Of a DNA stretch of 64,000 nt, positions 11,090 to 53,339 are shown piece after piece (positions within the stretch are counted from its first letter, which is position 1; each line of letters starts with the position of its first letter). The notes below the pieces were generated by a model that did not search any database, was not told the origin of the DNA, and worked only from the letters and a program-made list of their open reading frames with translations. The stretch is from Deltaproteobacteria bacterium (GTDB lineage Bacteria; Myxococcota; Kuafuiibacteriia; Kuafuiibacteriales; Kuafuiibacteriaceae). The stretch spans positions 128,001 through 192,000 of the forward strand of contig JAVJQW010000041.1 in NCBI GenBank assembly GCA_040218735.1, given 5' to 3'. A program made the position numbers and the translations under genes.

Positions 11090-12017
11090 CGTCCCGACCT
11101 CAGGCGCGCGGAGCGCGTGCGGAAGAAGCTGATGAGCGGGGCGACGTAGTCGGCGTCCGTCGACAGGTCGATCACGTCGCAGCCGAGCTGGCGCAGGCGG
11201 CGGTCCGCGTCGTCGAGCGCGCGGCGTCTTCGCGCCGTGAAGGCGTCGCGCACCTTCTTCGACGACGAGTCGACCAACCGCACCTCGCCGGTCTCGGCGT
11301 CGACGAGCTCGAGGAGGCCGAGGTCCGGCAGCTCGATCTCCGCCGGGTCCTTCACGCGCGCGGCGACCACGTCGTGGCGCGCCATCGCGATCTTGAGCGG
11401 CGAGTCGAAGCCTTCGTCGAGGAAGTCGGACAACAGGAACACCACGGCGCGCCGCTTCATCACGCGCGACAGGAACGCGAGCGCTTCGCCGATGTTCGTG
11501 CCGCGGCCCTTCGGTCTCGCCTCGACGATCTCGCGGATCACGCGCAGCACGTGCGGCTTCCCTTTGCGCGGTGCGAGGTACAGCTCGACCTCGTCGGTGA
11601 ACAACACGAGGCCGACGCGGTCGTTGTTCTTGATCGCCGAGAATGCGAGCGTCGCGCCGAGCTCCGCGAGGAGGCGGCGCTTCGGTTTGACCTTCGTGCC
11701 GAAGTCACCGGAGCCCGACAGGTCGACGAGGAGGATCACCGTCAGCTCGCGCTCCTCCACGAACTGCTTCACGAACAGCCCCTGGTCCTGGTGGCGCGCG
11801 GAGACGTTCCAGTCGATGTGCCGGATGTCGTCGCCCGGGGCGTACGGCCGCACCTCCGAGAACGCCATGCCCTGGCCCTTGAAGACGGAGTGGTAGCGCC
11901 CCGCGAGCTCCGCGTTCACGGCGCGGCGGGTCGCGATCTCGATGCGCCGGACCGTTCGGAGCAGCTCGCGCGCGTCGGAGGGTGCGCTCGTCTCGCCGGC
12001 GGTCTGGGCGTCGTCGT

Positions 12018-12021
<4 letters not shown>
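11086..12021 (-). CDS. DUF58 domain protein (MoxR partner)
   Basis: YHSVFKGQGMAFSEVRPYAPGDDIRHIDWNVSAR; LLSDF. Confidence 0.92.
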
Positions 12022-13034
<1,013 letters not shown>

Positions 13035-30317: not shown

Positions 30318-31067
30318 GTGACGCGGACCTTCCATCTCGGCCAGCAGGACGCGATCAGCTGGCTGAGGACGATCGGTTCGGGGACCGTGGACCTCGTGAT
30401 CACGGACCCGCCGTACGAGTCCCTCGAGAAACACCGCGCTCGGGGGACGACCACCCGCCTCAAGAACAGCAAGGCGTCGAGCAACGACTGGTTCTCGATC
30501 TTCCCGAACCAACGTTTCCCGGAGCTGTTCGCCGAGCTGTACCGCGTGCTCGCGAAGAACGCGCACCTGTATTTGTTCTGCGACCAGGAGACGATGTTCG
30601 CCGTGAAGGCGATGGGGGAGCTCGCCGGGTTCAAGTTCTGGAAGCCGCTGGTGTGGCGCAAGGACTCGATCGGGATGGGCTACCACTACCGGTCGCTCTA
30701 CGAGCTCGTGCTGTTCTTCGAGAAGGGGAAGCGCCGCCTCAACGATCTCGGGATCGCGGACGTGCTCGACGCGCCGCGGGTGCGCAGCGGCTACCCGGCG
30801 GAGAAGCCGGTGTCGCTGCTCGAGATCTTCGTGCGCCAGAGCAGCGAGCCGGGTGAGGTGGTGCTGGATCCGTTCATGGGATCCGGGACGAGTGGCCTCG
30901 CCGCGCTCGGGCAGGACCGGCACTTCTGGGGCACGGACCTGTGCAGCGAAGCGGTCGACATCACGCAGCAGCGCATGCTCCAGGCGCACGGCGTCCCGCA
31001 GGCCTTGGCGCCCGCCGAGGACGCGCCGACCACCGCCGGTGGCCAGCTCTCGATAGGGCTCTACTGA
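30318..31067 (+). CDS. Orphan DNA amino-methyltransferase (N4-C/N6-A, beta class)
   Basis: Motif IV TDPPY near the N-terminus, YPAEKP, then motif [11 protein letters not shown]. Confidence 0.9.
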
Positions 31068-37881: not shown

Positions 37882-39192
37882 TCAGGCGAAGGCGGAGAGC
37901 ACCGGCTTGCCGACGCCGACGGCCTCGTTGAGCTTCGACTCCGGAACGCCGAGCGCGAGGCCGAGGGTCTTGGCCATCGATCCGAGCGTCTCGTCGTACG
38001 GGATGTCGCCGCCGGAGGCGCCGCTCGCCGAGTCGATGGACGTCGCGCGGTAGTCGTTGCCGTTGCGCTCGATGCCGCCGATGACGCCGCCCTTGAGGAC
38101 GTCGCCGATCATCACCGTCACGTGGTGCCCGCGGTTGTGGTCGCGCCCGTTCGTCCCCTTCTTGCGGAGGGTCCGACCGAACACGTTCAGCGTGCCGACG
38201 ATGACTTCGTGCCGCAGGACACCCTCGGACCGCAGCCCGTCGAGGTCCGCGACGAGCTGACCGATGCGCGCCACACCCGACACCGTCTGCGCGGTCTCGG
38301 CCACGAGGTCAGTGTCGTTGTGGTTGTCCCCGCCGAAGCGCCCCTTGATGGTGATCGCGGGCGTGATGTTCATCGCCGCGAGGATCGAGGCGGCCAGCGC
38401 CTGGTTGTCCTCGTCGTTGTTGTCGATGGCGTCGAGCCGCGTGAGCAGCACGTCGCTCACGCCGCGGACCTCGTCGCGCGAGCGAGCCCACGCGTCGAGC
38501 AGCGCGATGTCGCGCTTCGTCCCGTGGTCCTTGTACAGCCGGTAGAGGCGATCGATCTCCCGGTCGCGCAGCGGGGCGAGCGAGGCGAGGGGCCCCGTCG
38601 CACCACCGAGCGCCGCCTTGATCGAAGTCGGGCCGACGTTCGCCAGTACCTGGCCCGACGCCGACAACAGCTCGGAGCCGTTGCGCGCGCCGAGGCTGAG
38701 CGGGAGGTTCTGCACCGCGCCCTGCCGCGGCCCGAGCTCACGCGCGAGGATCGACACGAGCATCTCGTTGTCGTCCGTCGCGCCCATCATGCGCATGACC
38801 TTGTTCTGGTCCTGGTGCACGGGCGTGTACGTCGCGTGGTGGAAGAACACGGTGCGGTCGAGGACGTTCTGCGGGAGGTCCGCCCACGGCTTCGCCGCGG
38901 TGTAGTTCCGCCCCGAGAGACGCAGCTGCGTCGGCGCCATGAGCGGGTCCGCCGGGTGCGCCGCCTCGGACGCCGCGCCGCCGTACGTGCCGGGCACGTT
39001 GGCGTTGATCGGGTCGCCCGCGTTGGACGTCATCAGGATCAACATCCGCCCGGGGCCCTCGGCCAACTCGGAGGGCGACGCGCGCCCGGGGCGCGGGTTC
39101 AGGAGGATGCTCGCCGGGACACCGGTTGCGAGCGCGCGCAGCGCGATGCCCCCGGCGGCCGACTTCAACAGGTTACGTCGATTGAGCTTCAT
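37882..39192 (-). CDS. Tat-exported DUF1501-type protein
   Basis: Twin-arginine signal NRRNLLK; GGDNHND; FGRT...GRDH...GGVIG motifs. Confidence 0.8.
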   Translation of the reverse strand: MKLNRRNLLKSAAGGIALRALATGVPASILLNPRPGRASPSELAEGPGRMLILMTSNAGDPINANVPGTYGGAASEAAHPADPLMAPTQLRLSGRNYTAAKPWADLPQNVLDRTVFFHHATYTPVHQDQNKVMRMMGATDDNEMLVSILARELGPRQGAVQNLPLSLGARNGSELLSASGQVLANVGPTSIKAALGGATGPLASLAPLRDREIDRLYRLYKDHGTKRDIALLDAWARSRDEVRGVSDVLLTRLDAIDNNDEDNQALAASILAAMNITPAITIKGRFGGDNHNDTDLVAETAQTVSGVARIGQLVADLDGLRSEGVLRHEVIVGTLNVFGRTLRKKGTNGRDHNRGHHVTVMIGDVLKGGVIGGIERNGNDYRATSIDSASGASGGDIPYDETLGSMAKTLGLALGVPESKLNEAVGVGKPVLSAFA

Positions 39193-39206
39193 GACCGTTG
39201 TTCCTC

Positions 39207-41342
39207 TCAAAAGCCCACGCCGGCGACGCCCGGCGACATGCAGGCCACGACCAGCGCGCTCCGTCGCGCGTTGTACGGGGTCGCGCCGGCGTCGATGCCG
39301 TCCGCGACGTGCTCGGTGAGGATCTGAATCGCGGGGTCGTGGCGCGGGTCGCCCTCGGGCAGACCCATCACGTCCGTGACCATCTTCGCGACGGCGTCCT
39401 CGTTGTTCAGGCCATCGAACGCAGCGGCGTACGCCCGCTCGCCGATCTCCTTGCAGACCACCTCACGCGTCGCGCGGGTGAACAGGCCCGTCTCCGAGAT
39501 CGTGATGGGCTCCGGCTCTCCGCGGCTGACCGTGTCCGCCGGGATGGAGCCGACCGCGTTGAGCATCCGGGACTGCAGGCCGCTGCGCTCGCGGGGCAGG
39601 GTGTCGATGCCGCAGACGTCCGCGACGCCGAGGCGGTTCGACAGCTGCGCGCAGAACTGCTCGCGGCGGCTGATCGACGGACCGCGCTGCACCTTCTCGT
39701 CGACGCACTTCGCGTTCGTCACGAGCGGCGAGGCGAGCAGCTCACGAATCAGGACCTTGAAGTCGAACTCGGAGCCCTCGAACGCGGCGATGACCCGCTC
39801 GAGCTCCGCGGAGTTCTGACACGGCGCTGCGTTGGCGTAGTAGCAGAGCTTCTGCGTCCACCCGCGCGCGAAGTCGGGGTGGTTCGCGAGGATCGTCGCG
39901 AGGTCCTGCACGCCGGTGCCGGTCTGCTGCACGCCGCGGAAGACAAACGTCGCCGGGAGGTCGATGCGCTCCTGGTCGTGCTGCTGGCCGTACGCATTGG
40001 TGTACGAGTTGCGGAAGAACTCGCGCATCGGGTCGAGCGTCTGGTGGCAGCCGTAACACGGCGAGCCGGGCGCGGAGTGCTCGGCGTCGAGGTTCGGCGG
40101 CGAGAAGTCCGTGACGGTCTGCCCGTCGAAGCTCTCGCCGAGCGCGGTGATGAGCGTCTGGTTGAGCGTGACGCGGGACGAGTTGTCCTCGTTGGTCGGC
40201 CACGTCGCGAAGAAGCCGAGCGTCGTGAAGAACCCGACGCGGTCGCCGTGGAGCGCGAGCTCCTCGGCGTTGCGCAGCTGCGGGAGGCGGTAGAAACGAA
40301 TCGGCGTCTCGCCGTTCCCGGCCTTGCGGATGCGAATCGGCCGCCAGTCGTTGAAGTCCGCGCGGGTGAGGAGCGGGTTGCGACGCGCCGGGCGGGCGCG
40401 GCAGTTGTTGCCGGCGCCGACGTTCCGGACGTTGTCCATCCGGCCGAGGATCGCCTGGAACAGCCAGAACGCCTTGTTCGGGATCGCGTTCTGCTGGAAC
40501 CCCATCTCGTTCACGTTGTTGGCGAGGCAAAGCTCGTCGAAGTTCGGCACCCAGATGCGCAGGAAGTTGGGGCTGTTCGGGTTGAGGATCTGGTTCGCCG
40601 GCGGCTCGTCCGCCTTGTTGCGGAGCGCGGTGAAGTCCGTGACCTCGTTCATCGCGCGCGTGAAGACGGTGTCGTCGTCGCGCACGTGGCGGTGGTCGAG
40701 GTACGCGTAGAAGAACATCAACGCGGTCGTCATCTCGAACGTGTCGGTGGTGACCACGTCCTTGAAGGGGCGACCGGACTTCGCGATCGACAGCGCGGTG
40801 CGCGCGAAGCTCTCCTCGATGTTCTTGATCATGAGGTTCTCGCCGAGCTCGCGGTTGTCGTCGAAGCGACCCCACGCGATGTTCCGCGACTTGAGCATCG
40901 GCATCAGGCCCTCGCCGGTGACCTGGTCCTGCTGGAACGCCATCATGAAGAAGCGCCGCAGCACGGTCTCGGCTTCGGGGGTGTCGAACCACGCCTCGAC
41001 GAGCTCACCGATCGCCTCCGGGTCCTCCTTCAACGTCCGCAGCTCGGCGGACGTGAGCGGCAGGCCCGTGAGGAGTGTCTTCACCTTCGCGCCGTACACG
41101 TGCGGCCCCGAGAGCTGGTCGACCGCGCAGTTCTCGGCTTCACCGACCGGCGTCGTCCCGACGGGGAACGTCGGGATCGGCTCGACCGGATCCGGGTCGG
41201 GCATGGGGTCCGGATCGGGTTTGGGATCCGGCTTCGGATCGACGATCGGATTGGGCTCGATGTTGCCGTTGACCGTCGGCTGCGCGTTGCAGCCGACGAG
41301 CGCCGTCATCACCCCGAGGGTCATCCACAGCTCGAGTTTCAT
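39207..41342 (-). CDS. DUF1585/1588/1592-type lipoprotein with a c-type heme motif
   Basis: Lipobox LVGC; Pro/Asp linker; KVKTLLTGLP.T..E; GFFTT..F...WPTN; CYGCH..LDP. Confidence 0.8.
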   Translation of the reverse strand: MKLELWMTLGVMTALVGCNAQPTVNGNIEPNPIVDPKPDPKPDPDPMPDPDPVEPIPTFPVGTTPVGEAENCAVDQLSGPHVYGAKVKTLLTGLPLTSAELRTLKEDPEAIGELVEAWFDTPEAETVLRRFFMMAFQQDQVTGEGLMPMLKSRNIAWGRFDDNRELGENLMIKNIEESFARTALSIAKSGRPFKDVVTTDTFEMTTALMFFYAYLDHRHVRDDDTVFTRAMNEVTDFTALRNKADEPPANQILNPNSPNFLRIWVPNFDELCLANNVNEMGFQQNAIPNKAFWLFQAILGRMDNVRNVGAGNNCRARPARRNPLLTRADFNDWRPIRIRKAGNGETPIRFYRLPQLRNAEELALHGDRVGFFTTLGFFATWPTNEDNSSRVTLNQTLITALGESFDGQTVTDFSPPNLDAEHSAPGSPCYGCHQTLDPMREFFRNSYTNAYGQQHDQERIDLPATFVFRGVQQTGTGVQDLATILANHPDFARGWTQKLCYYANAAPCQNSAELERVIAAFEGSEFDFKVLIRELLASPLVTNAKCVDEKVQRGPSISRREQFCAQLSNRLGVADVCGIDTLPRERSGLQSRMLNAVGSIPADTVSRGEPEPITISETGLFTRATREVVCKEIGERAYAAAFDGLNNEDAVAKMVTDVMGLPEGDPRHDPAIQILTEHVADGIDAGATPYNARRSALVVACMSPGVAGVGF

Positions 41343-42865
41343 GGTCTCACTCCTCCACCGAGCCACTCTTCGATGATCGTGACTTGGTCCTCGCCCCAGC
41401 TGGGGCTGCGCGATTGCCTGGGCGGCATGTCACCGAACTCGATGACACGCGCGCGAATCTTGTCGGCGCGTTCGACCCACGCCTCGTAGGAATCGATCGT
41501 CGGCGCCGCCGGGTTGGCGCCGTCCGCGTGGCAGCTCGCGCAGTGCTCTTGGTAGATCGGGCGGACGTCTTCTTCGAACGTCCGGATCACCGCGGGCTCG
41601 CGCTTGAGCGCCAAGGTTCGTTGGGTGTCGCCGGCGGCGAGCGTCAGCTCGTGCCAGCCGAGGGACAGCGCGCCCGAGAACTCGAACCAGCCGTCCGTCA
41701 CGCGCGTCGCCGGCACGTCGGTGTCGCCGTCGGTGAGCGTGACCATCGTGGCGCCGTCGCTCGCTTGCACGCGGAGGGCGAAGGTCTCGTCGACGCTTCG
41801 GGTGCCGCTGCGGAGCCCCGCGATGCGCAGCATCGTGGCGGGGGCGTAGTGACAGACCTCGGCTTCGGTCGCGGTCCACAGGCCGCCGGAAGCGTGCGGG
41901 TGGAGGGCGCCCGTCGCGCCGGCGACCGCGAGGAACGTCTCGCCGTCGAAGCGGAGCACCTGACCGTCGACGACCACCCACGCGTAGGCGCCGGCCGTCG
42001 CGAGCGCCGTCGCGTCGCCGGCTTCGAAGCGGTACTCCGTCCAGGGTTCGGGGCCCACGAAGAGGTTGCCGTCGGCGAGGACCAGGACGCGGTCGCCGAG
42101 GAGCGCCGGGTCGTGGCCGGACTCGATCGCGGCGGGTCGGGTGAACGCGGCCGGCTGCAAGCGCCACAGCTCGAGGTCCTTGGTCTCGAACCACACGCCG
42201 TCGTCGATGCCCGCGCACTCGTTGTCGCGGGGGAGGAGGGCGGCGTCGGTCGCGAGCGCGTCCTCGAAGCCGGTCCACTCGATCCAGCTGTCGCCGTCGC
42301 GCTGGAACACGGCGCCGTTCGAGGTGATGAACGCCGAGGCGGTGGGGTCGCCGCAGAAGGAGGCGTCCGGGGCGAGCGCCATCGGCGCCGACACGACGGT
42401 GCGGTCACCTTCGACGACCGAGAACAGCTGGCCGTCCGCGAGCATCGACGCGGTCGTGGCGGACCAGGCGCGGACGACGCTGATGTCGGTCGCGGCGAGG
42501 CGGTAGGTGGAGACCTCGCCGATCGCCCAACCGTCGACGACGCGCACCGTGGCGGCTTCGGTCGTGCTGGTGGTGGCGAGCCAGAGGTGGCCCTCGGGGC
42601 TCACGTCGAGGATCTGTTCGGCGGCGCCGCGCGCAGCGCAGGTCGCCGTGGTCGTCAGGGCGCCGGGCGCCGAGACGGTGATCCAAGGGTCCGGCATGGG
42701 GTCGGGGTCGGGATCCGGATCGGGATCAGGGTCCGGATCGGGATCCGGGTCCATCACGTCGGGCGGCGGGGCGATGACGCCGGGGCAGCCGTAGGCGCCC
42801 GCGAGGACCAAGGTCAGGATGGTGATTTGCCCCCATCCGGGGCGGCGTTTCGTGACGATGCGCAC
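41339..42865 (-). CDS. Lipoprotein with a beta-propeller-like body and C-terminal cytochrome c domain
   Basis: Lipobox AYGC; (DP)n linker; TFEEDVRPIYQEHCASCH...GDMPP...IEEWL.GG. Confidence 0.8.
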   Translation of the reverse strand: MRIVTKRRPGWGQITILTLVLAGAYGCPGVIAPPPDVMDPDPDPDPDPDPDPDPDPMPDPWITVSAPGALTTTATCAARGAAEQILDVSPEGHLWLATTSTTEAATVRVVDGWAIGEVSTYRLAATDISVVRAWSATTASMLADGQLFSVVEGDRTVVSAPMALAPDASFCGDPTASAFITSNGAVFQRDGDSWIEWTGFEDALATDAALLPRDNECAGIDDGVWFETKDLELWRLQPAAFTRPAAIESGHDPALLGDRVLVLADGNLFVGPEPWTEYRFEAGDATALATAGAYAWVVVDGQVLRFDGETFLAVAGATGALHPHASGGLWTATEAEVCHYAPATMLRIAGLRSGTRSVDETFALRVQASDGATMVTLTDGDTDVPATRVTDGWFEFSGALSLGWHELTLAAGDTQRTLALKREPAVIRTFEEDVRPIYQEHCASCHADGANPAAPTIDSYEAWVERADKIRARVIEFGDMPPRQSRSPSWGEDQVTIIEEWLGGGVRP

Positions 42866-42876
42866 CTACTGAAACC

Positions 42877-42905
42877 AGTGGTCGGGCGTCGCCAAAACGG
42901 CCCAC
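42877..42905 (-). promoter_or_regulatory. Putative ECF-sigma target promoter, copy 1
   Basis: GTGGGCCGTTT-N13-CCACT on the minus strand, 11 nt before the GTG at 42865. Arms and spacing are identical to the copy at 48745-48773. Confidence 0.7.
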
Positions 42906-42956
42906 TCCACGTGCGGTTTTTTGGGGCTTTTTGTCCCGCCGACCCGCGGAGGCCGA

Positions 42957-45900
42957 TCAGGGCGTGAATTCGTGGTGTCCGATGTCCACGCGGCCGCCCT
43001 GGGGGCGCGCCGTGGCGAACCGATCGACCTCGGGCGCGCCGTCGGAGCGCCCGGCGTCACGCGCCGGGGAGCGGGCCGACAGGCGGGAGATCGAGCGTCG
43101 ATGTTCGAGGCCGTGCGCCTGGAACAGCGGCGGGAGGATGAGGTTTTCCCGCCCCTGGACCTCCGCCTCGTACGACACGAAGTCGGTCGACGTGTACCGC
43201 GGTCCGTCCTCGACGCGGACGTACGAGCCCCCCTCGCCGCGCTCGGCGGACTCGACGAACAGGAGGTTGTTCTCCAGCCGGCCCACCGCCATCACGGCGC
43301 CGCCGGAGCGCTCGAAGATTGCGGTCGGGTCGGCGGTCAGCGCGCCGTCCTCGCGGATGAGGACGATGTTGTTGAACAGCGCCGCGGCCCCCTGCGTCAC
43401 CCGGTCGAAGACGATGCCGCGTTTGTCGACGGAGCGGTCTTCGGCGTCGAGCGCCTCGACCTCGATGACGTTGTTCCACAGCTCGAGCGAGGAGACGCCC
43501 GTGGCGTAGAGCCCCACGAGGTCCACGCCGCGCGTGGCCGCGATGTAGTTGTTCGCGAGGTACGCGTCGTTGCCGCTCAGCACGATCAGGCGCGCACCGA
43601 CGGCGTCGATGTTCGGCACCGTGTTGAAGTTGCCGCGTCGCCCCGTGTTCACGCCGTTGCGCTCCAGCCGGAGCCCGCGCGACGCGAGCGGCGGCTCGAC
43701 GTAGGGGGCGAGGCCGTCGCGGATCGCCGAAACCCACGGGCGCACCGCGGGCGGGCACTCGAGCGGTACGGAGAGCACGCCGGTGCGGACTTCGCTCTGT
43801 TCGATCGTCACGTTCGTCGTGTCGACGGTCCAGATCCCCGGGACCGCCGGTGGAAGCACGCGGTCCTCGCCGTCCCACACGCCGCTCGACGCGCCGCCGA
43901 AGACGCCCGTGTCGCGCGTCGAGTTGCGGCCGTTGCGCGCGAGCGTCGCGGTGGACGTGCCGACGAGCAGGATCCCCGCGGCGACGTCTGCCCCCTCGCG
44001 CGTCGCGGGCTCCGCGTTGCAGTCGACGCCGGTCCACGCGTACGCGGAGCGGCCCGCGACGATCTGGCGGTTGTCGAGGATCGCGAGGCGTCGCGAGCCG
44101 CCGACGATGACGGTGCCGTCGCGGAGCACTTCACCGTCCGCGATACCGGCGGAGAATCGGTGACCCGACGGCTGCCACGTCGCGCCCACGATGTTGTTGT
44201 TCGAGATCTCCAAGTCGTCCGTCGCTCGGGTGCGAATCGCGACCGTGGTGTTCGCGGGATTGCCGTTGCGCGTGTACGCGGCGATGCGGGTGAGCCCGCG
44301 GATACGTCCGGTGGGGCGTCGACCGGCGCGCGCTTCGACGTAGATGCCGTACGCGCGTGCGTTCGCGCCGTAGGCTTCGACGTCGATCGTGTCGCCGAGG
44401 AGATCGATGTCGACGTTCCCGCGTGCGTGGATGCCGCGGCAAGTTCCGTTGCAGGAGAGGAGCTCGATCGAGCTGTCGTCGTTCCAGACGAGCTGCGCCG
44501 GGGCAGCCGTCTCCGCGGTCACGACGATCCCCGTCGCGCCGTTCTGGTTCCCCTCGGAGCGGACGTCGGTCCCGACGAGCCGAACGTTGGAGGCGATCGT
44601 CTCCGCGTCGATCGCCATACCTACGCTCCCGACCCCCGTCGGGAGCACGAGCTCGGCACCTTCGAAGCGCGGCGACGCATCGACGACGCGCACCAGCGTT
44701 CGTTCGCCGGTGCCGGTGAAGATGATGTTACGCAGCGTCGACGTGTACCCCGCGGCGAAGCGCAGCTCGCCGGTGTTGTTGAAGTGCAGGCGCGCGCGAG
44801 TGGTGTTCGGGTGGCCGCCGCCGCCGAACGCGGCGTTGGCGCCGACACCGACCGGCAAGGTCAACGGCGTGCCGCGGTTGAAGCGCCCGCCGGCGGCGAC
44901 GCACACGTCGCCGCCGGTGTTCTGCGCGCGGGTGATCGCGGGCCCCACGTTCGGGAGCGCATCGGCGACGGCGGGGCCCGTGCCGTCGCCGGTGCCGCCG
45001 ACGCGGACCCACGAGCAGTCCCGGACGATCACCCGCAAGGCCCGCGAGGTCTCCACGCCGTCGAAGCCGTCGCGCGCGAACAACGTGAGGTTGTAGGTCC
45101 CGGCGGGGAGGGCAGCGTCGAAGCGCATCTCCTCACCCTCGCAAGGTGCGTTGCAGGTGAGCCGGTCCGCGTCGGGGCCGCCCCAACGGATCGTGACCGG
45201 GTTGTCCGGGTCCGTCGGGACCACCGGACGCAGCCAGGTGCGGATGCCGGTGCTCGCGTGCACGATGATGCGGCCGCCGTCGAGCACGCCGCCCGCGAGC
45301 TCGGAGACCCTCGGGCGGGTGTTGCGCATCCGGACACGAATCGTGTCGGCGTGAACGCCGGCGATGCGCAGCTCGATGGTGTACTCGCAGTCGAGCTTGG
45401 CGGGGTCGTCGACGATCGCGACCGTGCGTTCGGTGGTGTCGATCGTGTCGCGCGGCTCGGTGAGGACGACGTCCGTCGGGCTGCAGGTGTCGTCGGGGAC
45501 GGCGCCGATGACGGCCCACTTGCGACCGAGCTCGAGCGTCGGCGGTGTCAACACGGCTTGCACGACGCGCGTGGTGCCGTGCTCGATGACGATGACGCCA
45601 TCGCCGTCCTGGAAGGATGCGGTGATGTGCGTGCACCCGTTGAAGTCGAGGTAGTCCGCGAAGCCGTTGCAGTCGTTGTCGATGCCGTCGTCGCAGATCT
45701 CCGTGCGTCCCGGGTGCTGCGTGATGTCGTTGTCGTTGCAGTCGTTGGGACCGAGCGGGCAGATCAGCGGCTCGAGGTCGTAGTCGACGGTGGAGTCGCA
45801 GTACCCGTCGCGATCGTCGTCGCAGCCGTTGTCGACGACGCCGTCGCAGTCGTCGTCGAGATCGTTACAGCGTTCGACGCGGGGCGCGAGCGGGATGCAG

Positions 45901-46097
45901 GTGTTCGCGACGTCGCCGACACACGCGGGGACCGAGCGCCGACAGATGCCCTCGCCGCACTCCAGATCGGGCTGCGTGGCGTCGCACACCACCGGGGGCG
46001 GTGGCGGAGGCGGCGGAGGATCACGTTCTTCGAGGAGCGCGCCGACGTCCTTGCCGGAGCACCCCGCGAGCAGGATGAGGATCAGCGCGCGCCTCAT
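42957..46097 (-). CDS. Large surface lipoprotein: Cys/Asp-rich putative metal-binding (MopE-like) repeats, beta-helix-like region, choice-of-anchor Q-like end
   Basis: Lipobox LAGC; poly-Pro; ERCNDLDDDCDG.VD; DCNDND...HPG..EICDDGIDNDCNG; C-terminal SPARDAG...RPQGGRVDIGHHE. Confidence 0.8.
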   Translation of the reverse strand: MRRALILILLAGCSGKDVGALLEERDPPPPPPPPPVVCDATQPDLECGEGICRRSVPACVGDVANTCIPLAPRVERCNDLDDDCDGVVDNGCDDDRDGYCDSTVDYDLEPLICPLGPNDCNDNDITQHPGRTEICDDGIDNDCNGFADYLDFNGCTHITASFQDGDGVIVIEHGTTRVVQAVLTPPTLELGRKWAVIGAVPDDTCSPTDVVLTEPRDTIDTTERTVAIVDDPAKLDCEYTIELRIAGVHADTIRVRMRNTRPRVSELAGGVLDGGRIIVHASTGIRTWLRPVVPTDPDNPVTIRWGGPDADRLTCNAPCEGEEMRFDAALPAGTYNLTLFARDGFDGVETSRALRVIVRDCSWVRVGGTGDGTGPAVADALPNVGPAITRAQNTGGDVCVAAGGRFNRGTPLTLPVGVGANAAFGGGGHPNTTRARLHFNNTGELRFAAGYTSTLRNIIFTGTGERTLVRVVDASPRFEGAELVLPTGVGSVGMAIDAETIASNVRLVGTDVRSEGNQNGATGIVVTAETAAPAQLVWNDDSSIELLSCNGTCRGIHARGNVDIDLLGDTIDVEAYGANARAYGIYVEARAGRRPTGRIRGLTRIAAYTRNGNPANTTVAIRTRATDDLEISNNNIVGATWQPSGHRFSAGIADGEVLRDGTVIVGGSRRLAILDNRQIVAGRSAYAWTGVDCNAEPATREGADVAAGILLVGTSTATLARNGRNSTRDTGVFGGASSGVWDGEDRVLPPAVPGIWTVDTTNVTIEQSEVRTGVLSVPLECPPAVRPWVSAIRDGLAPYVEPPLASRGLRLERNGVNTGRRGNFNTVPNIDAVGARLIVLSGNDAYLANNYIAATRGVDLVGLYATGVSSLELWNNVIEVEALDAEDRSVDKRGIVFDRVTQGAAALFNNIVLIREDGALTADPTAIFERSGGAVMAVGRLENNLLFVESAERGEGGSYVRVEDGPRYTSTDFVSYEAEVQGRENLILPPLFQAHGLEHRRSISRLSARSPARDAGRSDGAPEVDRFATARPQGGRVDIGHHEFTP

Positions 46098-47029
46098 GCG
46101 CCCCCCCAGCGAGCGTCCAACGCGAGCGCGCCGCCGAGCCACGCGCCGTACAGACCCGCGCGTTCGTCGCCGGCGTCGCCGAAGACACCCGACGCGGTGT
46201 ACCCGCCCTCGACTTCGAGCGCGACGCCCACGTCACCACCATAGCGGATCCGCCCGCCGATCCGCGGACCGAACCACGGCCCGCTTCCGGTGCGAGTGTC
46301 CACGTTGTCCGACTCGGTGCGCCCGGAGAGCCACGCCCATCCGCCGCGGAAGCCGATCGAGACCAGCCCGTCGAGGCGCGGCAGCAGCGCGCGGCGTCGC
46401 CCGACGACGAAGGCCGCCGAGACGAAACGCGTGCGCACGTCGCCGAGCGCGACCGTTCCGTCGGACTGCGAGAAGCCGCCGTCGACCGCGACGGTCCAGC
46501 CGTCGAAGTCCACCGCGACACGCCCTCGCGCGCCGAACGCAACCGGGGTTGCGCCGGGCATCACCCGCACCGTTGGCGCCGCGGCGATCGACAGGTCGAG
46601 GGGGCGCGCCACCGTCGCCGAGACCGGCGTCGAAACGACGCTCGGCGCCGGCGCTTCCGTGACGAACGCGCGGCGCCGCTCCACGATCGGCACGTCGTTC
46701 ACGAGCTCGACGATGTTCAGCGCGACGAGCCGCGCGCCGCCGCTCGCGCGGACGTCGTCGAGCGCGATGCGTCGCTCCGCGATGTCCTGCACGACGCGAT
46801 CGCCGAGCGCGCGATCGCTGGCGACGAAGATCCTGAGCAGCTCGGAGGTGCAAGCCGTCCTGACGACGAGCTCCGCGTCACCCTCGGTGAGGCGCGCGAC
46901 GCCGATTTCGATACCGACGAGGTCGTGGACGAGGTCGGGCGAGGGAACGCACTCCGCCAGGTCCAGGCGCACGGGACCGTCCGTCGCGCCGACGGCCAGC
47001 CACACCAGGAGCGCCTGGGTCGCGATCAT
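46094..47029 (-). CDS. Secreted protein with a C-terminal beta-barrel-like region, partner of FecR/ECF
   Basis: Signal peptide; N-terminal domain with 2 Cys; Gly/aromatic alternating strands; translationally coupled at both ends. Confidence 0.7.
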   Translation of the reverse strand: MIATQALLVWLAVGATDGPVRLDLAECVPSPDLVHDLVGIEIGVARLTEGDAELVVRTACTSELLRIFVASDRALGDRVVQDIAERRIALDDVRASGGARLVALNIVELVNDVPIVERRRAFVTEAPAPSVVSTPVSATVARPLDLSIAAAPTVRVMPGATPVAFGARGRVAVDFDGWTVAVDGGFSQSDGTVALGDVRTRFVSAAFVVGRRRALLPRLDGLVSIGFRGGWAWLSGRTESDNVDTRTGSGPWFGPRIGGRIRYGGDVGVALEVEGGYTASGVFGDAGDERAGLYGAWLGGALALDARWGGA

Positions 47030-48174
47030 CGCGCTCGCCCGGCCAGCCTCCTCATGCTCTTCACTTTACGGCCCTCCGGGTAGCGCGTCAGATACGTCGA
47101 CGCGCGGTCCTTCGCCTTGTCCCGCTCCCCCGCGAGCGCCCAGCACTCCGCTTCGTGGGCGAGGGCGTCCTCGGCGAGGGACCCGGTGGGGCCGAGCACG
47201 CGCGCCTTCGCAAAGGCCTCCGCCGCGCGGCGCGGCTCCTTGAGCTCGTTCTGCCAGAGGCGTCCGAGCGTGAAGGCCGCGACGAGCGCGCGCGGGTGGT
47301 TCGGGTGCCGGTCGACGACGATCTTCAGGTACCGCGCGGCGTCCCGCGGGTGCCCGGAGAGGCGCGCGACGTCGGCCGCGAGCATCAGGTCCTTGGTACC
47401 GCGCGGCGCGCGGGTGGTGCGGTCGAGGGCGTCGAACGCGTCGTCGAACTTTCCGTCCTCCGCGAGGGCGGTCCACCGCTCCTTCTTCTGCGTTTGTTTC
47501 TTCTTGCGCGCGCGCTTCCGACGTTTCTTCCGCTTCTTGGGTTCGGGCTCGGGCTCGACTTCGTCTTCGGCGGCTTCGTCGACGACGACGCGTCCCGCGA
47601 CGAAGGCCAGCTTCATGTCGCGGCCGAGCTCGTACCGGTTGTCGCCGGCGAACACGGCGACCCGGCCTTCGTGCACGGAGACGTCGACCTCGTCCTCGGG
47701 CCGCACGGCGACGGTGAACGAGGTGCCGATGACCTCCACGTACAGGTCCTGCGCGCGCACCCGGAACAGGCGCGTGTCGCTCGGGACGACCTCGAAGCGC
47801 GCTTCGCCGGCCGCGAGGCTCAGCTCGAGCAGATCTTCCTGCGACGCCTCCACGCGGACCTCGGTGCGCGGCTGCATCAGCGTCGCGTGGGAACCGTCCG
47901 CGAAGTAGACGACGCGCTGCTGCGGCGCGACCGGCTTCGGGTCCGTCGCGGCGATCGGCCTGGCGGGGACGACGATCGGGTCCGCGCCGGGGAGGCTCAT
48001 GACGACCGCGGCGACGAGCGCGACCGCCGCGACGCCGCCGGCGCCCATCTGACGACGGCGTCGACGAATGCGCCGCTGCTCGAACCGGTGAAGCGCGCGT
48101 GCGGTGTCGCGCTCCGAGGCGTCGACGACCAGAAGGTCGCGCGCGCCCGCGAGATCGCGCTCGAGGTCACGCAT
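47026..48174 (-). CDS. FecR-domain anti-sigma factor with TPR C-terminus
   Basis: TM helix; F.DGS...LAAGEARFEV...VEVIGTSFTV...VSVHEGRV; TPR-like end (YL.RYPEG). Confidence 0.85.
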   Translation of the reverse strand: MRDLERDLAGARDLLVVDASERDTARALHRFEQRRIRRRRRQMGAGGVAAVALVAAVVMSLPGADPIVVPARPIAATDPKPVAPQQRVVYFADGSHATLMQPRTEVRVEASQEDLLELSLAAGEARFEVVPSDTRLFRVRAQDLYVEVIGTSFTVAVRPEDEVDVSVHEGRVAVFAGDNRYELGRDMKLAFVAGRVVVDEAAEDEVEPEPEPKKRKKRRKRARKKKQTQKKERWTALAEDGKFDDAFDALDRTTRAPRGTKDLMLAADVARLSGHPRDAARYLKIVVDRHPNHPRALVAAFTLGRLWQNELKEPRRAAEAFAKARVLGPTGSLAEDALAHEAECWALAGERDKAKDRASTYLTRYPEGRKVKSMRRLAGRAR

Positions 48175-48730
48175 CGACGGCCGCCTGGATCCGGGCCTGC
48201 GCCGCGGCGAGGAGTCGCTTCACGGTGCTGAGCCCCATGTCGGTGAGTTTCGCGATGTCCTCCAGCTTCTCACCTTCGATGAAACGGAGGACCCAGACCA
48301 CCCGTGCTTTCGCGGGGAGGTCGTCGAGGGTCCGGTAGACCTGCAGAAGGAGCGTCGCGTGCTCCTGGCGAGGGTTGTGGAAGAAGGCGTCGAGGTCGAT
48401 CGGCTGGTCGAGGCCGAAGGTCGCCGCGAGCCGGAGGCGGCGCAGGCGCTTGATGGCGACCCGGACCGCGATGGACCGGACCCACCCCTTGGCGGCGCGA
48501 CGGTCCCGGAGCTTGCCGAAGCCGCGGTGCACTTCGAGGAAGACGTCTTGGACGAAGTCGTCGACCTCGCTCTTTCGACCGAGCATCCTGAGGCCGATCG
48601 TCGCCACGAGCCGGTGGTAGCGGCTGAAGCACTCCTCGAATGTCGCTGGCCCTTCATCCGGTGGCTCGACCGCCTGACCCTTCACCAGCCGCAGACCGAC
48701 GTCTTGGGAGCTGGGCTTGGTCGGAGGCAT
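48167..48730 (-). CDS. ECF RNA polymerase sigma factor
   Basis: DDFVQDVFL (region 2); W...IA; L..LP...R..WVLR..EG..LEDIA......STVKR.L (region 4). Confidence 0.93.
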   Translation of the reverse strand: MPPTKPSSQDVGLRLVKGQAVEPPDEGPATFEECFSRYHRLVATIGLRMLGRKSEVDDFVQDVFLEVHRGFGKLRDRRAAKGWVRSIAVRVAIKRLRRLRLAATFGLDQPIDLDAFFHNPRQEHATLLLQVYRTLDDLPAKARVVWVLRFIEGEKLEDIAKLTDMGLSTVKRLLAAAQARIQAAVDA

Positions 48731-48744
48731 CCCTCAACCAGCAT

Positions 48745-48773
48745 AGTGGGCCCGGCGTCCAGAAACGGCCCAC
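48745..48773 (-). promoter_or_regulatory. Putative ECF-sigma autoregulatory promoter, copy 2
   Basis: GTGGGCCGTTT-N13-CCACT, 14 nt before the sigma ATG at 48730. Confidence 0.7.
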
Positions 48774-48892
48774 GGAACCATCAAATTTTCGAGACGTGGT
48801 CCCCAGCCGTGATCCAACCCGGGACTTTGGGCGTGGGCCAGCGCACGAAAGAGAGAAATCACGCCCTCGCGACGTCTCTGTACAGGGATGAA

Positions 48893-49666
48893 ATGAAGAT
48901 GCCGATAGAACGGTCGATGAATGGGCACGTGATGTATCGGATCCCCGCCGAGCCCCCGCAGGCCCACGCTTTTGGCGGACGGTTGAAATCCCTGTCGCTC
49001 GCGGCTATCTACCGAACCTTGACCGGCGACCTCCCCATCCCGCGGCAGCCCTCGGTCAAGCCGCCCAACCTGTATGGGGACCACTACGGGGCCTGGGCCC
49101 AGGCGGCCCGACAGGCTCGCGCCGGCACTCAGCACCCGATCGACGAGCTCCTCGCCGAGCACCATCTGATGCGTCGGATGTTCGAGGCGATGCGCACCGA
49201 GGCCGTCGAGATCGCCCGGCGGCGCCCGATGAACCTCGACTTTTGGGCCAACGCCGTCGATGTCATCGGCAACTTTGCGCTCCTGATCCACTGGCGCAAG
49301 AAGGCCAACCACCTCTTCCCGCTCATCCGCGACCGCGGCTTCGCCGACCACCTCGCGAAGCTCGAAAAAGAGCAGGACCAGGACATCGCCAACACGCTCG
49401 AGCTCTGCGACGCCGTCCAAGACGGTGACCGCGAGAGCGTGGTGCGCCTCGTTTCGCTCTACACCGGCGCGAAGCAGCGCCACATGGAGCGCGAGGAGCA
49501 GACCGTGTTGCTCCCGTCCAAGGACGTGCTCACGCCCGAGGACGTCGCGACCCTCCGCGCCAAGTTCGACGAGGTCGACGAAGGCGCCATGCCCGGCGCC
49601 GGCCGCGCGCACTACTACGGCGTGGCCATCGACGTGATGAACCACGTCGGCATCGACCCGGACTGA
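48893..49666 (+). CDS. Hemerythrin-like domain protein with degenerate iron ligands; start uncertain
   Basis: PIDELLAEHHLM...HWRKKANHLFP...EKEQDQD...HMEREEQTVL. The true CDS is the 3' half of track ORF 48104..49666. Confidence 0.75.
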   Translation: MKMPIERSMNGHVMYRIPAEPPQAHAFGGRLKSLSLAAIYRTLTGDLPIPRQPSVKPPNLYGDHYGAWAQAARQARAGTQHPIDELLAEHHLMRRMFEAMRTEAVEIARRRPMNLDFWANAVDVIGNFALLIHWRKKANHLFPLIRDRGFADHLAKLEKEQDQDIANTLELCDAVQDGDRESVVRLVSLYTGAKQRHMEREEQTVLLPSKDVLTPEDVATLRAKFDEVDEGAMPGAGRAHYYGVAIDVMNHVGIDPD

Positions 49667-49675
49667 CGCTCTGAC

Positions 49676-51232
49676 TCAGCGCCAGTCGCCGGTCACGTAC
49701 AGCGCCGACGCGCCGATCAGGAACCGGCCGTCGTCGCGCGCTTGGAGCGAAGTGATCGCCACGGTGTCGAGGACCTTCGGCAGGCAGATTCGTTCGAACG
49801 ACGCGCCCCCGGGTGCGATGCGGAACAGGTTGGGCGTCGCGGTGGCGATCCACAGCGCGCCCGACGGGTCCGCGGTGATCGCGGTGAAGATGATCGGCAT
49901 CTCGGCGTCGACGCGTTCGTCGGCGAAGAGCGCTTCTTCCAACCCGGAGGGGGCGGCGGTTGTGACCGAGCCTCCGCTGCGGTCCACGAACAACAGCTGT
50001 GCGTCGGCGCCGCCGATCACGGCGACGCGCGAGTCCGAGGCGGCGCCCGCCCACGTCGCGACGAAGCTCGTGCACAGCGGCTCACACCCCGCGTTGATCG
50101 ACGCTTCGTAGACCGTGCGCCACCCGCGGGACTCGAGCTCCCAGACCGAGCCCGCAAGGTCGGTTGCGATCGGTGGGGAGCTCGGCGAGGTCACGATCGA
50201 CGTGACACCGAACGAACGACCGAAGTCGTAGACGGTCCAGTCCGACGCGCCCTGTGGTCGACACCAGATCGCCGCGCGCCGGTCCGAGCCGAGCGCGCCG
50301 CCGAACGTGCACAGGTTCTCGGTGCCCTCGATCGTCACCGTCTTCACGCCGTAGAGGTAGCGCGGGAACGTGTCCGGGTTCGGCGGGGTGTCGTCGACGT
50401 ACGCGCGGCGCGCCGCGTTCCAGGTCAGCATCGCGCCGACCGTGCCGAAGCCACGGCCGGAGTAGTTCACGACGAGGTGGCGCGGCCAGATCTCTCCGTC
50501 GATGTCGACCTCCGGTCCGCCGAGCCCGAGCACCACCGCGCGTTCGCCGGTCTGGAGCGCGACGGTCCCGGTGCGCACCGCGCGTGCTTCGAGCTGCGTG
50601 CCGTTGGGCGGGACGAAGCCGAGGAAGATGGTGCTGGTGGAGGTGAAGCCGATGACGGTCGTGCCGTCGCTGAGCGTGGCCATCGAGGAGAGGGCGTCGA
50701 TCGGGAGCTGCGGGGTGGTGACGTCGAAGGGCGTGGTGGGTTCGCGGCACGGGCTCGCGATCGCGAGGTCGGAGATCAGCGTGCGCAGTCGTGCGTCGCG
50801 TTCCTCGGATCGTTCGCGGCTGACGCCGGGCCCCTCGATCGGCGCGAGCGGCGTGGGCGACTCCGCGGGGGAGGGCACGTCCATGACGTGGGGGTCGTAG
50901 AGCGGGGGGAGCGGTCGTGCGCCGTCGGCGTTGCTCGCGACGAGCATGAGGTCGAGCGGGGAGATGTTCGCGGGGAGGTCATCCGCCGAGAGGCCGGCGT
51001 ACATCATGTCGACGTCGGTGCCCGCGATGACCTCGGGTTTCAGCACGTCGATCGACGTGGTCGCGACGATGCGCACCGAGTTCGCGGCGAGCGCGCGTCC
51101 GGCGGGTGCGGTGCCGTAGATGACGAAGTCGGTGCCGACCGCGGGTCGGTCCAGCACGCCGGAGTCTTCTCCCGAGCACGCGGCCGAAGCGACGAGCAAC
51201 AGAACGAACGAGGTCTTGGCTGGCGACGGCAT
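49676..51232 (-). CDS. Lipoprotein of unknown function (beta-propeller-like)
   Basis: Lipobox SAAC; strand-rich; AITADPSGALWIA-type blades. Confidence 0.7.
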   Translation of the reverse strand: MPSPAKTSFVLLLVASAACSGEDSGVLDRPAVGTDFVIYGTAPAGRALAANSVRIVATTSIDVLKPEVIAGTDVDMMYAGLSADDLPANISPLDLMLVASNADGARPLPPLYDPHVMDVPSPAESPTPLAPIEGPGVSRERSEERDARLRTLISDLAIASPCREPTTPFDVTTPQLPIDALSSMATLSDGTTVIGFTSTSTIFLGFVPPNGTQLEARAVRTGTVALQTGERAVVLGLGGPEVDIDGEIWPRHLVVNYSGRGFGTVGAMLTWNAARRAYVDDTPPNPDTFPRYLYGVKTVTIEGTENLCTFGGALGSDRRAAIWCRPQGASDWTVYDFGRSFGVTSIVTSPSSPPIATDLAGSVWELESRGWRTVYEASINAGCEPLCTSFVATWAGAASDSRVAVIGGADAQLLFVDRSGGSVTTAAPSGLEEALFADERVDAEMPIIFTAITADPSGALWIATATPNLFRIAPGGASFERICLPKVLDTVAITSLQARDDGRFLIGASALYVTGDWR

Positions 51233-51578
51233 CCTCGGGGACAGGGTACCGAATCTGGGAGAAATGAGAGGCCCGGGAGACACGGCCCATCCGTGCCTCC
51301 CAGGGTCCCCAACCGCCGACGCACGGACCTGGGACGGGACTTGGGGTTTATCGAGTGTGCGCCGACTGTCGTGGTGGTCTAGAGCACGGTCGGTGCCAGG
51401 CGTGCCTCGACGCAGAGTCCTTGGATTTCGATGAGTTAACGGACGGGTGTCCGTTTTGGATCGAACGCCAACGTTGCGAGCGTTCGGTTCTTTACGGTTC
51501 GGCGATCGTCCGCGCGCGGGGTCGTGAATGCAAACCGGGGCTCATTTTGCGGTGAGCGATCTGCTATCGGGTCCCGCG

Positions 51579-53132: not shown

Positions 53133-53310
53133 CCGACGGCGACGCAGTCAGCCGTCCCCTTGCCCATGAACTTGCCCTCGCCCCTGCCCTCACCAACGAA
53201 GGTATAGGCGCCGCGGAGTAAGCCCGCGAGCCGAGATCAAACTGCCCCGAATCCGTCCCGGTGCCACCGTCCCCTGTGCACTCCGGCGACCCGCCCCCCT
53301 CCATCCCGCT

Positions 53311-53325
53311 TGGATCGCCGGTTGC
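53311..53325 (+). promoter_or_regulatory. Putative sigma54 (-24/-12) promoter
   Basis: TGGATCG-CCGG-TTGC, exact GG-N10-GC spacing, 14 nt before ATG 53340. Confidence 0.55.
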
Positions 53326-53339
53326 TCTTGCACCGTTCG

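Follow-up and report, generated by a model that had tools for sequence, protein, structure and literature searches.

Two conserved promoter-like motifs and a predicted outer-membrane barrel suggest an autoregulated, envelope-spanning ECF sigma factor system in a member of the Myxococcota

Can a single promoter motif that stands before two neighboring gene sets mark the regulon of one extracytoplasmic function (ECF) sigma factor, and how might such a factor be controlled from the outer membrane when no TonB-dependent transducer lies beside it? These questions are raised by a stretch of 64,000 nucleotides (nt) from a Deltaproteobacteria bacterium of the Myxococcota (assembly GCA_040218735.1), which is referred to here as the window and corresponds to C58:128001-192000 of an 11.6-Mb assembly with 70 contigs and 69% G+C. 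The first gene set (operon 1) encodes the sigma factor, an anti-sigma factor, a small barrel-like protein and a large lipoprotein, and the second (operon 2) encodes two heme-type lipoproteins and a protein exported by twin-arginine translocation (Tat). Both sets are on the minus strand, and their adjoining genes share start/stop overlaps of 4–8 nt. The best-supported reading, which we consider likely, is that of an ECF system that regulates itself and has two promoters, in which the sigma factor, the anti-sigma factor and the barrel form a module spanning the envelope. The gene content given for both operons by the initial annotation, which was made from the sequence alone, agrees with the Pfam scan and the sequences. 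The parts of the system are as follows, with protein lengths in amino acids (aa).

48745..48773, minus strand: P1, a bipartite promoter-like motif found by pattern match and kept, with a variable spacer, before the sigma gene in the related genomes G001, G004, G006 and G011.
48167..48730, minus strand: ECF sigma factor, 187 aa (Pfam Sigma70_r2, 50 bits, and Sigma70_r4_2, 31.7 bits; TIGR02937, 69.2 bits against a cut-off of 42.9).
47026..48174, minus strand: single-pass FecR/TPR anti-sigma factor, 382 aa (Pfam FecR, 46.5 bits; weak TPR matches; a hydrophobic window; ortholog alignment).
46094..47029, minus strand: 311-aa envelope protein with a signal-like N-terminus and a predicted periplasmic domain and barrel (AlphaFold2, Foldseek).
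42957..46142, minus strand: MopE-motif lipoprotein, 1061 aa from the first GTG (Pfam Cu-binding_MopE, 40 bits; NF041518, 30.7 bits).
42877..42905, minus strand: P2, the second copy of the motif, found by pattern match and present at the same position in G001, G004, G006 and G011.
41339..42865, minus strand: cytochrome c lipoprotein, 508 aa (Pfam Cytochrome_CBB3, 22.8 bits, under the cut-off of 27; CASCH at residue 442).
39207..41366, minus strand: divergent PSD/PSCyt (DUF1592-type) lipoprotein, 719 aa (PSD2/DUF1585, 29.1 bits against a cut-off of 25.8; weak DUF1800).
37882..39210, minus strand: Tat-exported DUF1501 protein, 442 aa (Pfam DUF1501, 27.0 bits, exactly the cut-off of 27; RRNLLK).

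The motif has the form GTGGGCCGTTT-N13-CCACT. The pattern search of the window returned two copies, both on the minus strand and with the identical arms and spacing that had first drawn attention to them. By chance 0.02 copies would be expected, and none of 100 shuffled sequences contained two or more. The 3' end of P1 lies 14 nt ahead of the sigma gene's start codon, an ATG (48730). P2, which lies inside an intergenic gap of 91 nt, ends 11 nt ahead of the GTG (42865) that opens the gene for the cytochrome c lipoprotein; both distances are those originally reported. The sequences that flank the two copies are unrelated. The initial annotation had itself raised the possibility that the motif is common at random sites, and a scan of the 11.6-Mb genome found the full pattern, as well as the core GGGCCGTTT-N13-CCAC, at P1 and P2 only. 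When a weight matrix built from the sites of the closest relatives was used, P1 and P2 scored 30.7 and 28.0 bits and the next-best place in the genome 20.6 bits, which leaves the runner-up approximately 7 bits below P1 and P2. The same scan of the assembly for further regulon members yielded nothing that scores near the two sites. The word GACGCC, which had been pointed out in both spacers, is indeed present at P1 and P2, but the four related genomes do not retain it in their spacers, and it was dropped as a probable chance occurrence.

The conservation of the motif was followed in close relatives. A protein search with the anti-sigma factor covered 40 related genomes and the window's own, and clear orthologs were found in G001, G004, G006 and G011, with 79, 57, 54 and 50% identity, respectively. 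The gene order from the sigma gene to the DUF1501 gene is retained wherever the contigs of these relatives permit a view. In all five genomes of the clade (the window's and the four relatives), the motif precedes both the sigma and the cytochrome c genes. The arms GGGCCGTTT and CCAC are kept, with the exceptions of one site that reads GGACC and one that starts with ACGG, and the alignment reveals 13-nt spacers that are unrelated in sequence and constant in length. Because the arms are conserved, the spacer is free in sequence and fixed in length, and the orientation toward the downstream gene is constant, the motif can be read as a bipartite promoter. The whole genomes of the four relatives contain eight exact matches to the core, seven of which are sigma or cytochrome c sites; the remaining expected clade site, that of the G006 sigma gene, has one mismatch. 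Core matches with one mismatch are about as common in these four genomes as matches to a reversed control. The extra exact copy is found at a contig end in G004 (C67:14306-14331 of that genome; locus L099, 5307-5332, plus strand), 83 nt before two small open reading frames (ORFs) of 120 aa and, truncated, 88 aa, which are without a Pfam match. This copy may mark an additional regulon member in that organism.

A related motif emerges in a much wider family. With the anti-sigma alignment as the query, one genome per species was scanned; this gave 153 confirmed loci, and the best 80 of these, four of which belong to the close relatives, were analyzed. Nearly all are from Myxococcota, including, by record title, cultured Myxococcus, Corallococcus, Hyalangium, Archangium and Vitiosangium. 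An iterated weight matrix gave the consensus xTGAGCC(G/A)TTT-N13-xC(A/T)C(T) before the sigma genes, and 64 of the 75 sigma-upstream regions reached a score of at least 8 bits (the 95th and 99th percentiles of the null are 7.1 and 10.5 bits). The controls use the 73 regions that do not belong to the seed clade. Of these regions, whose mean length is 341 nt, 53 contain TGAGCC, compared with 252 of 3000 random windows of 280 nt, and in five-fold cross-validation 66 of the 73 held-out regions lay above the 95th percentile of the null. The window's clade has GGGCC at the place where most other family members have GAGCC.

On these comparisons, the motif is very probably the bipartite promoter that belongs to the sigma factor itself, and the original proposal that one promoter motif serves both the sigma operon and the heme-lipoprotein/DUF1501 operon is borne out by the five clade genomes and by the family consensus. 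The canonical ECF -35 element is GGAAC, and the alignment of GGGCC to GGAAC puts the two elements 17 nt apart. In the scheme proposed here, GGGCCGTTT would be the -35 element and CCAC(T) the -10 element, and we infer that both are recognized by this particular sigma factor. Transcription from P1 would produce the sigma factor, the anti-sigma factor, the barrel protein and the lipoprotein, which would amount to positive autoregulation. Transcription from P2 would produce the cytochrome c lipoprotein, the PSD-type heme lipoprotein and the Tat-exported DUF1501 protein. The transcription start would be expected approximately 8–10 nt after CCAC, so both mRNAs would be leaderless or nearly leaderless, the start codons being 12 and 15 nt after CCAC.

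The proteins of operon 1 suggest how such a sigma factor could be held and released. The 187-aa protein consists of the sigma-2 and sigma-4 regions only and has no Pfam match for region 3 or region 1, as is the case for ECF (group IV) sigma factors, whose length is about 160–220 aa. The stop of the sigma gene and the start of the anti-sigma gene share 8 nt. The anti-sigma protein is composed of a cytoplasmic segment of approximately 43 aa, a transmembrane helix at about residues 44–62, a FecR domain at 85–172, a linker rich in Lys and Arg and a C-terminal TPR domain at about 240–382. The TPR domain has a weak resemblance to YbgF/CpoB and BamD, which are TPR proteins of the envelope. The FecR domain aligns with the structures 4M0N and 4M0H in the Protein Data Bank (PDB), annotated as "putative anti-sigma factor", with an E value of 6e-8. 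An invariant Gly-Thr pair (G150-T151) in the motif EV(I/L)GT(S/R)F aligns with VLG(A/G)SF of these two structures, which differ from each other at precisely the residue aligned with the Gly-Thr pair. FoxR is reported to cleave itself at a Gly-Thr site (PMC11637429), and the anti-sigma factor of the window resembles it in having such an invariant pair in its FecR domain. Self-cleavage at G150-T151 is only a lead, in which the equivalence of the FoxR Gly-Thr column is assumed by analogy.

A transducer of the usual kind was sought among the seven cluster genes, eight flanking ORFs and 31 further ORFs of the window, which were scanned for TonB receptors and kinases. No TonB-receptor or plug domain was found in any of these, in agreement with the earlier statement that the cluster lacks a TonB-dependent transducer. 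The sole Pkinase match among them is encoded at 21881-23539, about 25 kb and about 19 genes from the sigma gene.

The 311-aa protein encoded directly after the anti-sigma factor is the candidate for this role. It has no match in Pfam or NCBIfam. The AlphaFold2 model, obtained with 12 homologues and a mean predicted local distance difference test (pLDDT) score of 78.3, consists of an alpha/beta domain at about residues 20–121, a disordered linker and eight long strands at 145–308, whose blocks mostly have pLDDT values of 76–96. A Foldseek search with the strands returned Ail (1.5e-7), OmpA (3e-7), OmpX (2e-6) and OmpW (8e-5), as well as OprF-N and NspA, with TM scores (target) of 0.6–0.73. The protein is thus predicted to consist of a periplasmic domain and an eight-stranded outer-membrane barrel with an OmpA/OmpX/OmpW-like fold. 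When folded alone, the N-terminal domain (N-domain) has a pLDDT of 84.5, and its best structural match is TraT, with a Z score of 7.5; lesser matches (Z up to 7.5) include CinA, VtrA, the TolB N-domain, LptE, CsgG, PelC and PqiC. Foldseek gave no match for the N-domain at E <=0.001. Among 1.84 billion representative sequences, the barrel family has 804 members at E <=0.001 and 276 at <=1e-10, mostly full-length proteins of approximately 300–350 aa. In the ESM Atlas, the clusters of this family are all named "hypothetical protein" and share no common Pfam family, and their commonest phylum is Myxococcota.

The barrel is linked to the anti-sigma factor both in the genome and in structure prediction. 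An iterated profile found a barrel homologue in 48 of the 80 loci, directly after the anti-sigma gene in 39, directly before the sigma gene in seven and overlapping the end of the anti-sigma gene, as called, in two. A co-fold of the FecR/TPR protein with the barrel protein had been named beforehand as a check on the annotation. When the periplasmic part of the anti-sigma factor (63–382) was folded together with the barrel N-domain (17–125), the score was 0.66, compared with 0.09 for the best control. At least 78% of contacts are shared between the runs, and the pLDDT of the partners is at least 75. Of solved complexes, 116 of 157 attain the pass mark, and of mismatched pairs, two of 215; these counts hold roughly here, own alignments having been used. 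In the predicted interface, TPR residues 260–272, 293–305 and 331–336 meet N-domain residues 36–41 and 86–112. This interface coincides with invariant columns of the anti-sigma alignment (LAADVARL, AAFTLGR and GSLAED) and of the barrel alignment. Across 49 members of the barrel family, the most conserved N-domain positions are C27, C60, E41, R100, A103, L104, E108 and L109, and E41, R100, L104 and E108 fall in the predicted interface. The overlap between interface and conservation supports the modeled binding of the TPR domain to the N-domain.

These predictions can be combined into a mechanism. At rest, the anti-sigma factor would hold the sigma factor with its short cytoplasmic N-terminus, and in the periplasm it would clamp the barrel protein's N-terminal domain with its TPR domain. 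The three proteins would then span the envelope in the manner of FecA-FecR-FecI, with no TonB-dependent transducer involved. An event at the outer membrane might alter the way in which TPR domain and barrel protein touch, lay the anti-sigma factor open to proteolysis and release the sigma factor. In this scheme, the signal would pass from the barrel to the anti-sigma factor, and release would be proteolytic. The initial annotation had assigned the replacement of the transducer to the small barrel together with the surface lipoprotein. For the barrel as an outer-membrane partner, the gene linkage in 48 of the 80 loci and the predicted interface provide computational support. A sensing role of the lipoprotein is unsupported, as orthologs of this protein are limited to the loci of the four close relatives, and it is treated here as cargo of the autoregulated operon. 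Its true start is probably the ATG at 46097, which shares letters with the barrel gene's stop codon; this start gives 1046 aa, the length originally assigned. It comprises the lipobox LLAGC, a poly-Pro linker, Cys/Asp-rich repeats of the MopE type, beta-helix-like repeats and a C-terminal choice-of-anchor Q domain.

The most serious rival to this mechanism, which we regard as rather unlikely, accepts the motif as the sigma factor's promoter and denies the barrel a signaling role. The barrel would then be merely co-regulated, or a passive anchor or stabilizer, and the anti-sigma factor would sense its cue directly through its own FecR/TPR periplasmic part; in another version, the system would watch over outer-membrane protein assembly in a way similar to sigma-E/RseA. 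A gene within an autoregulated operon could be a plain regulon member, seven loci have their barrel gene upstream of the sigma promoter, and the weak resemblance of the TPR domain to CpoB/YbgF and BamD is in keeping with this view. Contact in itself need not signal: in the Fox system, the receptor, through its signaling domain, reportedly binds the anti-sigma factor without a signal and shields it from proteolysis (PMC11637429). Against a passive barrel stands the continued linkage of the three genes in 48 of the 80 loci, even though barrel identity has fallen below 35%. Moreover, in each of the two proteins surface conservation is highest at the predicted interface, as would fit an obligate partner and not one target among many.

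Operon 2 is the second part of the proposed regulon. The 508-aa lipoprotein has a (Pro-Asp)n linker and a c-type cytochrome domain at its C-terminus. The 719-aa protein has CYGCH at residue 437 and probably starts at the ATG at 41342, which gives 711 aa. PSD2 alone is above its cut-off in this protein, and the other PSD and PSCyt models of Pfam gave no match. A local profile of PSD-type proteins from related loci matches it with an E value of 6e-36, in two stretches, which makes the label "DUF1592-type" used at the outset reasonable. The DUF1501 protein has the twin-arginine motif RRNLLK at its N-terminus, and its gene overlaps the stop of the PSD-type gene; orthologs with 70–92% identity occupy the same position in G011, G006 and G001. 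For all three proteins, no sequence relatives of solved structure were found at E <=0.01. The description of operon 2 as a redox module is a guess drawn from the CxxCH motifs.

In the wider family, second sites of the motif recur before genes of the same kinds. On both strands of the 80 loci (2.41 Mb), there are 76 matches of at least 16 bits at a spacer of 13, of which 41 are upstream of sigma genes and 35 are elsewhere. Many of the latter either diverge from the sigma promoter or follow closely on the barrel gene, and many stand a short way before a same-strand ORF; for 16 of the 35, an ORF starts within -30 to +200 nt. Thirteen ORFs that follow second sites were compared with Pfam: seven have the arrangement PSD3-PSD5-PSD4-PSCyt3(-PSD2), that is, DUF1587/1595/1592/1588/1585, and one is a DUF1552 protein. 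The other five comprise FG-GAP, fucosidase and aspartyl protease proteins of secreted type and two proteins with no significant match. According to local profiles, PSD-type genes occur in 17 of the 80 loci and DUF1552 genes in 14. A site of at least 12 bits was found at 15 of 23 starts of PSD or cytochrome c operons, compared with 4.4% of 383 random windows of 600 nt, and three more of the 23 starts, with 10.7–11.6 bits, contain the same words by eye. Because the 719-aa protein matches the PSD profile, operon 2 is, as judged by sequence, a divergent member of this recurring class of targets. In loci L048, L044 and L069, two or three PSD/DUF1552 pairs lie near one sigma module, and the motif is present on some of them only (two of three in L048).

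The window's own genome has further sigma/FecR-TPR modules, which are paralogous to that of the window and are located on C54 (43.6-46.8 kb), C67 (5.4-8.7 kb) and C9 (79.7-81.3 kb). Those on C54 and C67 include a barrel gene. The C67 module has GTGAGCCGATT-N13-CCTCTAT approximately 95 nt ahead of its own sigma gene, with the family-typical form GTGAGCC and not GTGGGCC. Since this promoter variant differs, it seems that the promoters of related sigma factors within the same cell can be told apart.

This difference bears on whether the motif could be bound by a factor other than its own sigma factor, namely, a dimeric transcription factor that uses the GTGG...CCAC symmetry as an operator or another ECF sigma factor of this ECF-rich genome. 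The arms of P1 are in fact partly palindromic, as GTGGGCC and GGCCCAC are reverse complements, and related ECF sigma factors of the paralogous modules might cross-recognize the site. We nevertheless regard this possibility as highly improbable. GTTT has no symmetric partner, one clade site has ACGG instead of GTGG, and the family consensus TGAGCCGTTT ... TCTCT/GCAC is not palindromic. Additionally, the motif always faces the gene that follows it and accompanies this sigma family, and the GTGAGCC variant of the C67 module is what one would look for if every sigma factor had a separate version of the motif. An RNA element in the 5' leader (a hairpin for translation or stability) or a duplication remnant is barely credible: the motif does lie 11–14 nt from start codons and a 7-bp stem is possible at P1, but the hairpin was rejected because the consensus of the 10 clade sites folds weakly (-3.75 kcal/mol, five pairs closing a 20-nt loop) with an unfavorable covariation term (+0.38), the arms of the family consensus are not complementary, and the unrelated flanks of the two copies argue against duplication.

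The two-promoter, envelope-spanning system thus draws comparative and predictive support from the motif and its uniqueness, its conservation, the family consensus, the target class, the barrel linkage, and the predicted folds and interface. Several points weigh against it. With start codons 12–15 nt after CCAC, it needs leaderless transcripts or very short leaders. In G006, the barrel and large lipoprotein genes are each split over two frames (L013, 12486-13770 and 13646-16640) with both motifs kept; these splits could be assembly errors or decay. No STN signaling domain is among the 50 structural matches listed for the barrel N-domain, which does not prove its absence. In 32 of the 80 loci there is no barrel homologue, several of these being short contigs in which the ORF filter may miss genes. 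The complex score expresses the confidence of a model and is not a measurement. The 80 loci were chosen by means of two TPR peptide patterns and hence are a TPR-selected, non-random sample. The family weight matrix was trained on the very regions that it scored, a concern that is eased by the cross-validation and the k-mer counts. Finally, about 15 ORFs of the PSD type and 11 of the DUF1552 type are present in the window's genome, and only one of the PSD-type ORFs is beside a family module; a general link between PSD-type genes and the ECF family within the genome was for this reason discarded.

The nearest described group of sigma factors appears to be ECF267. As described by Casas-Pastor et al. 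in 2021 (PMC7826278), this group comes from Polyangia-type myxobacteria (Sorangium and Chondromyces), has an anti-sigma factor, FecR-like and fused to TPR, at position +1 and no FecA-like or TonB-dependent receptor, is far from the FecI clade and has one to three protein kinases per context at positions that are not conserved; neither a conserved target promoter nor a barrel partner is given for it there. The pair in the window resembles ECF267, to which it is likened by description, its NCBIfam matches being generic ECF matches only: its +1 gene encodes FecR with a C-terminal TPR domain, and no TonB receptor is present among the scanned ORFs. It differs in its conserved motif, linked barrel and recurring PSD-type targets, and the nearest scanned kinase is about 25 kb away. 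The word "novel", which was initially applied to the regulon, is therefore too strong for the sigma/anti-sigma pair, as a FecR-TPR anti-sigma factor without a FecA-like receptor is already part of ECF267 (PMC7826278). The literature search, which left most subscription journals outside its reach, found no study of the module, of its promoter or of the link to PSD pairs. It appears that the pair is known in silico and that the conserved promoter, the barrel partner and the target class are new.

The system is also similar to FecA-FecR-FecI and FoxA-FoxR-FoxI, with which it shares an outer-membrane protein with a periplasmic domain, a single-pass FecR anti-sigma factor and an autoregulated ECF sigma factor, the first and last of these being predicted here. 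In contrast to FecIRA, the predicted barrel has eight strands, whereas the TonB-dependent transducer has 22. There is no FecR_C match in the anti-sigma factor, in which TPR repeats take that place and the cytoplasmic part has only about 43 aa. The FecI models are not reached either (NF041727, 46.1 bits against 260; NF007232, 40.9 against 185). DdvS-DdvA of Myxococcus xanthus was considered as another relative. It consists of an ECF sigma factor and a single-pass anti-sigma factor with a periplasmic TPR, for which regulated proteolysis has been proposed (PMC11506125). Unlike the anti-sigma factor of the window, DdvA, as described there, has a zinc-associated domain and a TPR-CHAT protease-like domain of approximately 900 aa, lacks FecR and a barrel, and controls CBASS/CRISPR-Cas (PMC11506125). 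As the domains differ, this candidate was rejected.

For pairs of PSD/PSCyt ("planctomycete-specific") proteins with DUF1552 or DUF1501 genes, the function is stated to be unknown in a Verrucomicrobia paper (PMC5615132). Operon 2 is similar to such pairs in that its CxxCH protein with PSD2 adjoins DUF1501, just as PSD3-PSD5-PSD4-PSCyt3-PSD2 adjoins DUF1552 in related loci. It differs in that a dedicated regulator and promoter are predicted here for a subset of the pairs, and the member in the window is divergent. Pairs of PSD/PSCyt with DUF1552/DUF1501 are common in Planctomycetota, Verrucomicrobiota and Myxococcota, and, if the present reading is true, it would provide the first regulatory handle on these widespread genes of unknown function. 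ECF sigma factors are among the most abundant signaling devices of bacteria, and myxobacteria carry dozens of them with unknown inputs and targets. The results give a testable promoter to a family whose nearest described group, ECF267, reportedly had no conserved one, and they propose that a third component, for which a defined interface is predicted, sits in the outer membrane. It is possible, although we put this forward more tentatively than the reading of the single locus, that the sigma factor, the FecR-TPR protein and the N-domain/barrel protein represent a TonB-independent class of trans-envelope signaling that is widespread in Myxococcota. In such a class, a small OmpA-like barrel with an LptE/TolB-N-like periplasmic domain would be the transducer, TPR would stand in for the C-terminal domain of FecR, and PSD/PSCyt and DUF1552/DUF1501 proteins would be the output in several lineages. 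Since related modules are present in cultured Myxococcus, Corallococcus, Hyalangium, Archangium and Vitiosangium, the predictions can be tested genetically.

The surroundings of the two operons are ordinary chromosomal genes, among them those for ribosomal proteins, DnaB, RecA and a carboxyltransferase. The following two genes are located on the far side of the sigma gene.

48893-49666, plus strand: hemerythrin HHE-domain protein, divergent from the sigma gene.
49676-51283, minus strand: 535-aa protein without a Pfam or NCBIfam match, adjoining the hemerythrin gene.

Both genes also adjoin the sigma gene in G001, with 60 and 77% identity, respectively, and none were seen in the loci of the other relatives. 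On the plus strand next to P1, at 48775-48802, the sequence GGAACC-N15-CGTGG has the look of a canonical ECF promoter and faces the hemerythrin gene. As a promoter of that gene it was set aside as a probable chance match, and it is not conserved in G001, the closest relative. Elsewhere in the window, a set of the aerotolerance-operon type (BatA-BatD / MoxR AAA / DUF58 / VWA-TPR) occupies 5288-13034 on the minus strand, and a second MoxR-VWA pair is found at 59189-63999 on the plus strand. An N6/N4 DNA methylase gene (30318-31067, plus strand) directly follows recA, and an ORF of 1935 aa at 53310-59117 on the plus strand encodes collagen triple-helix and pentapeptide-type repeats.

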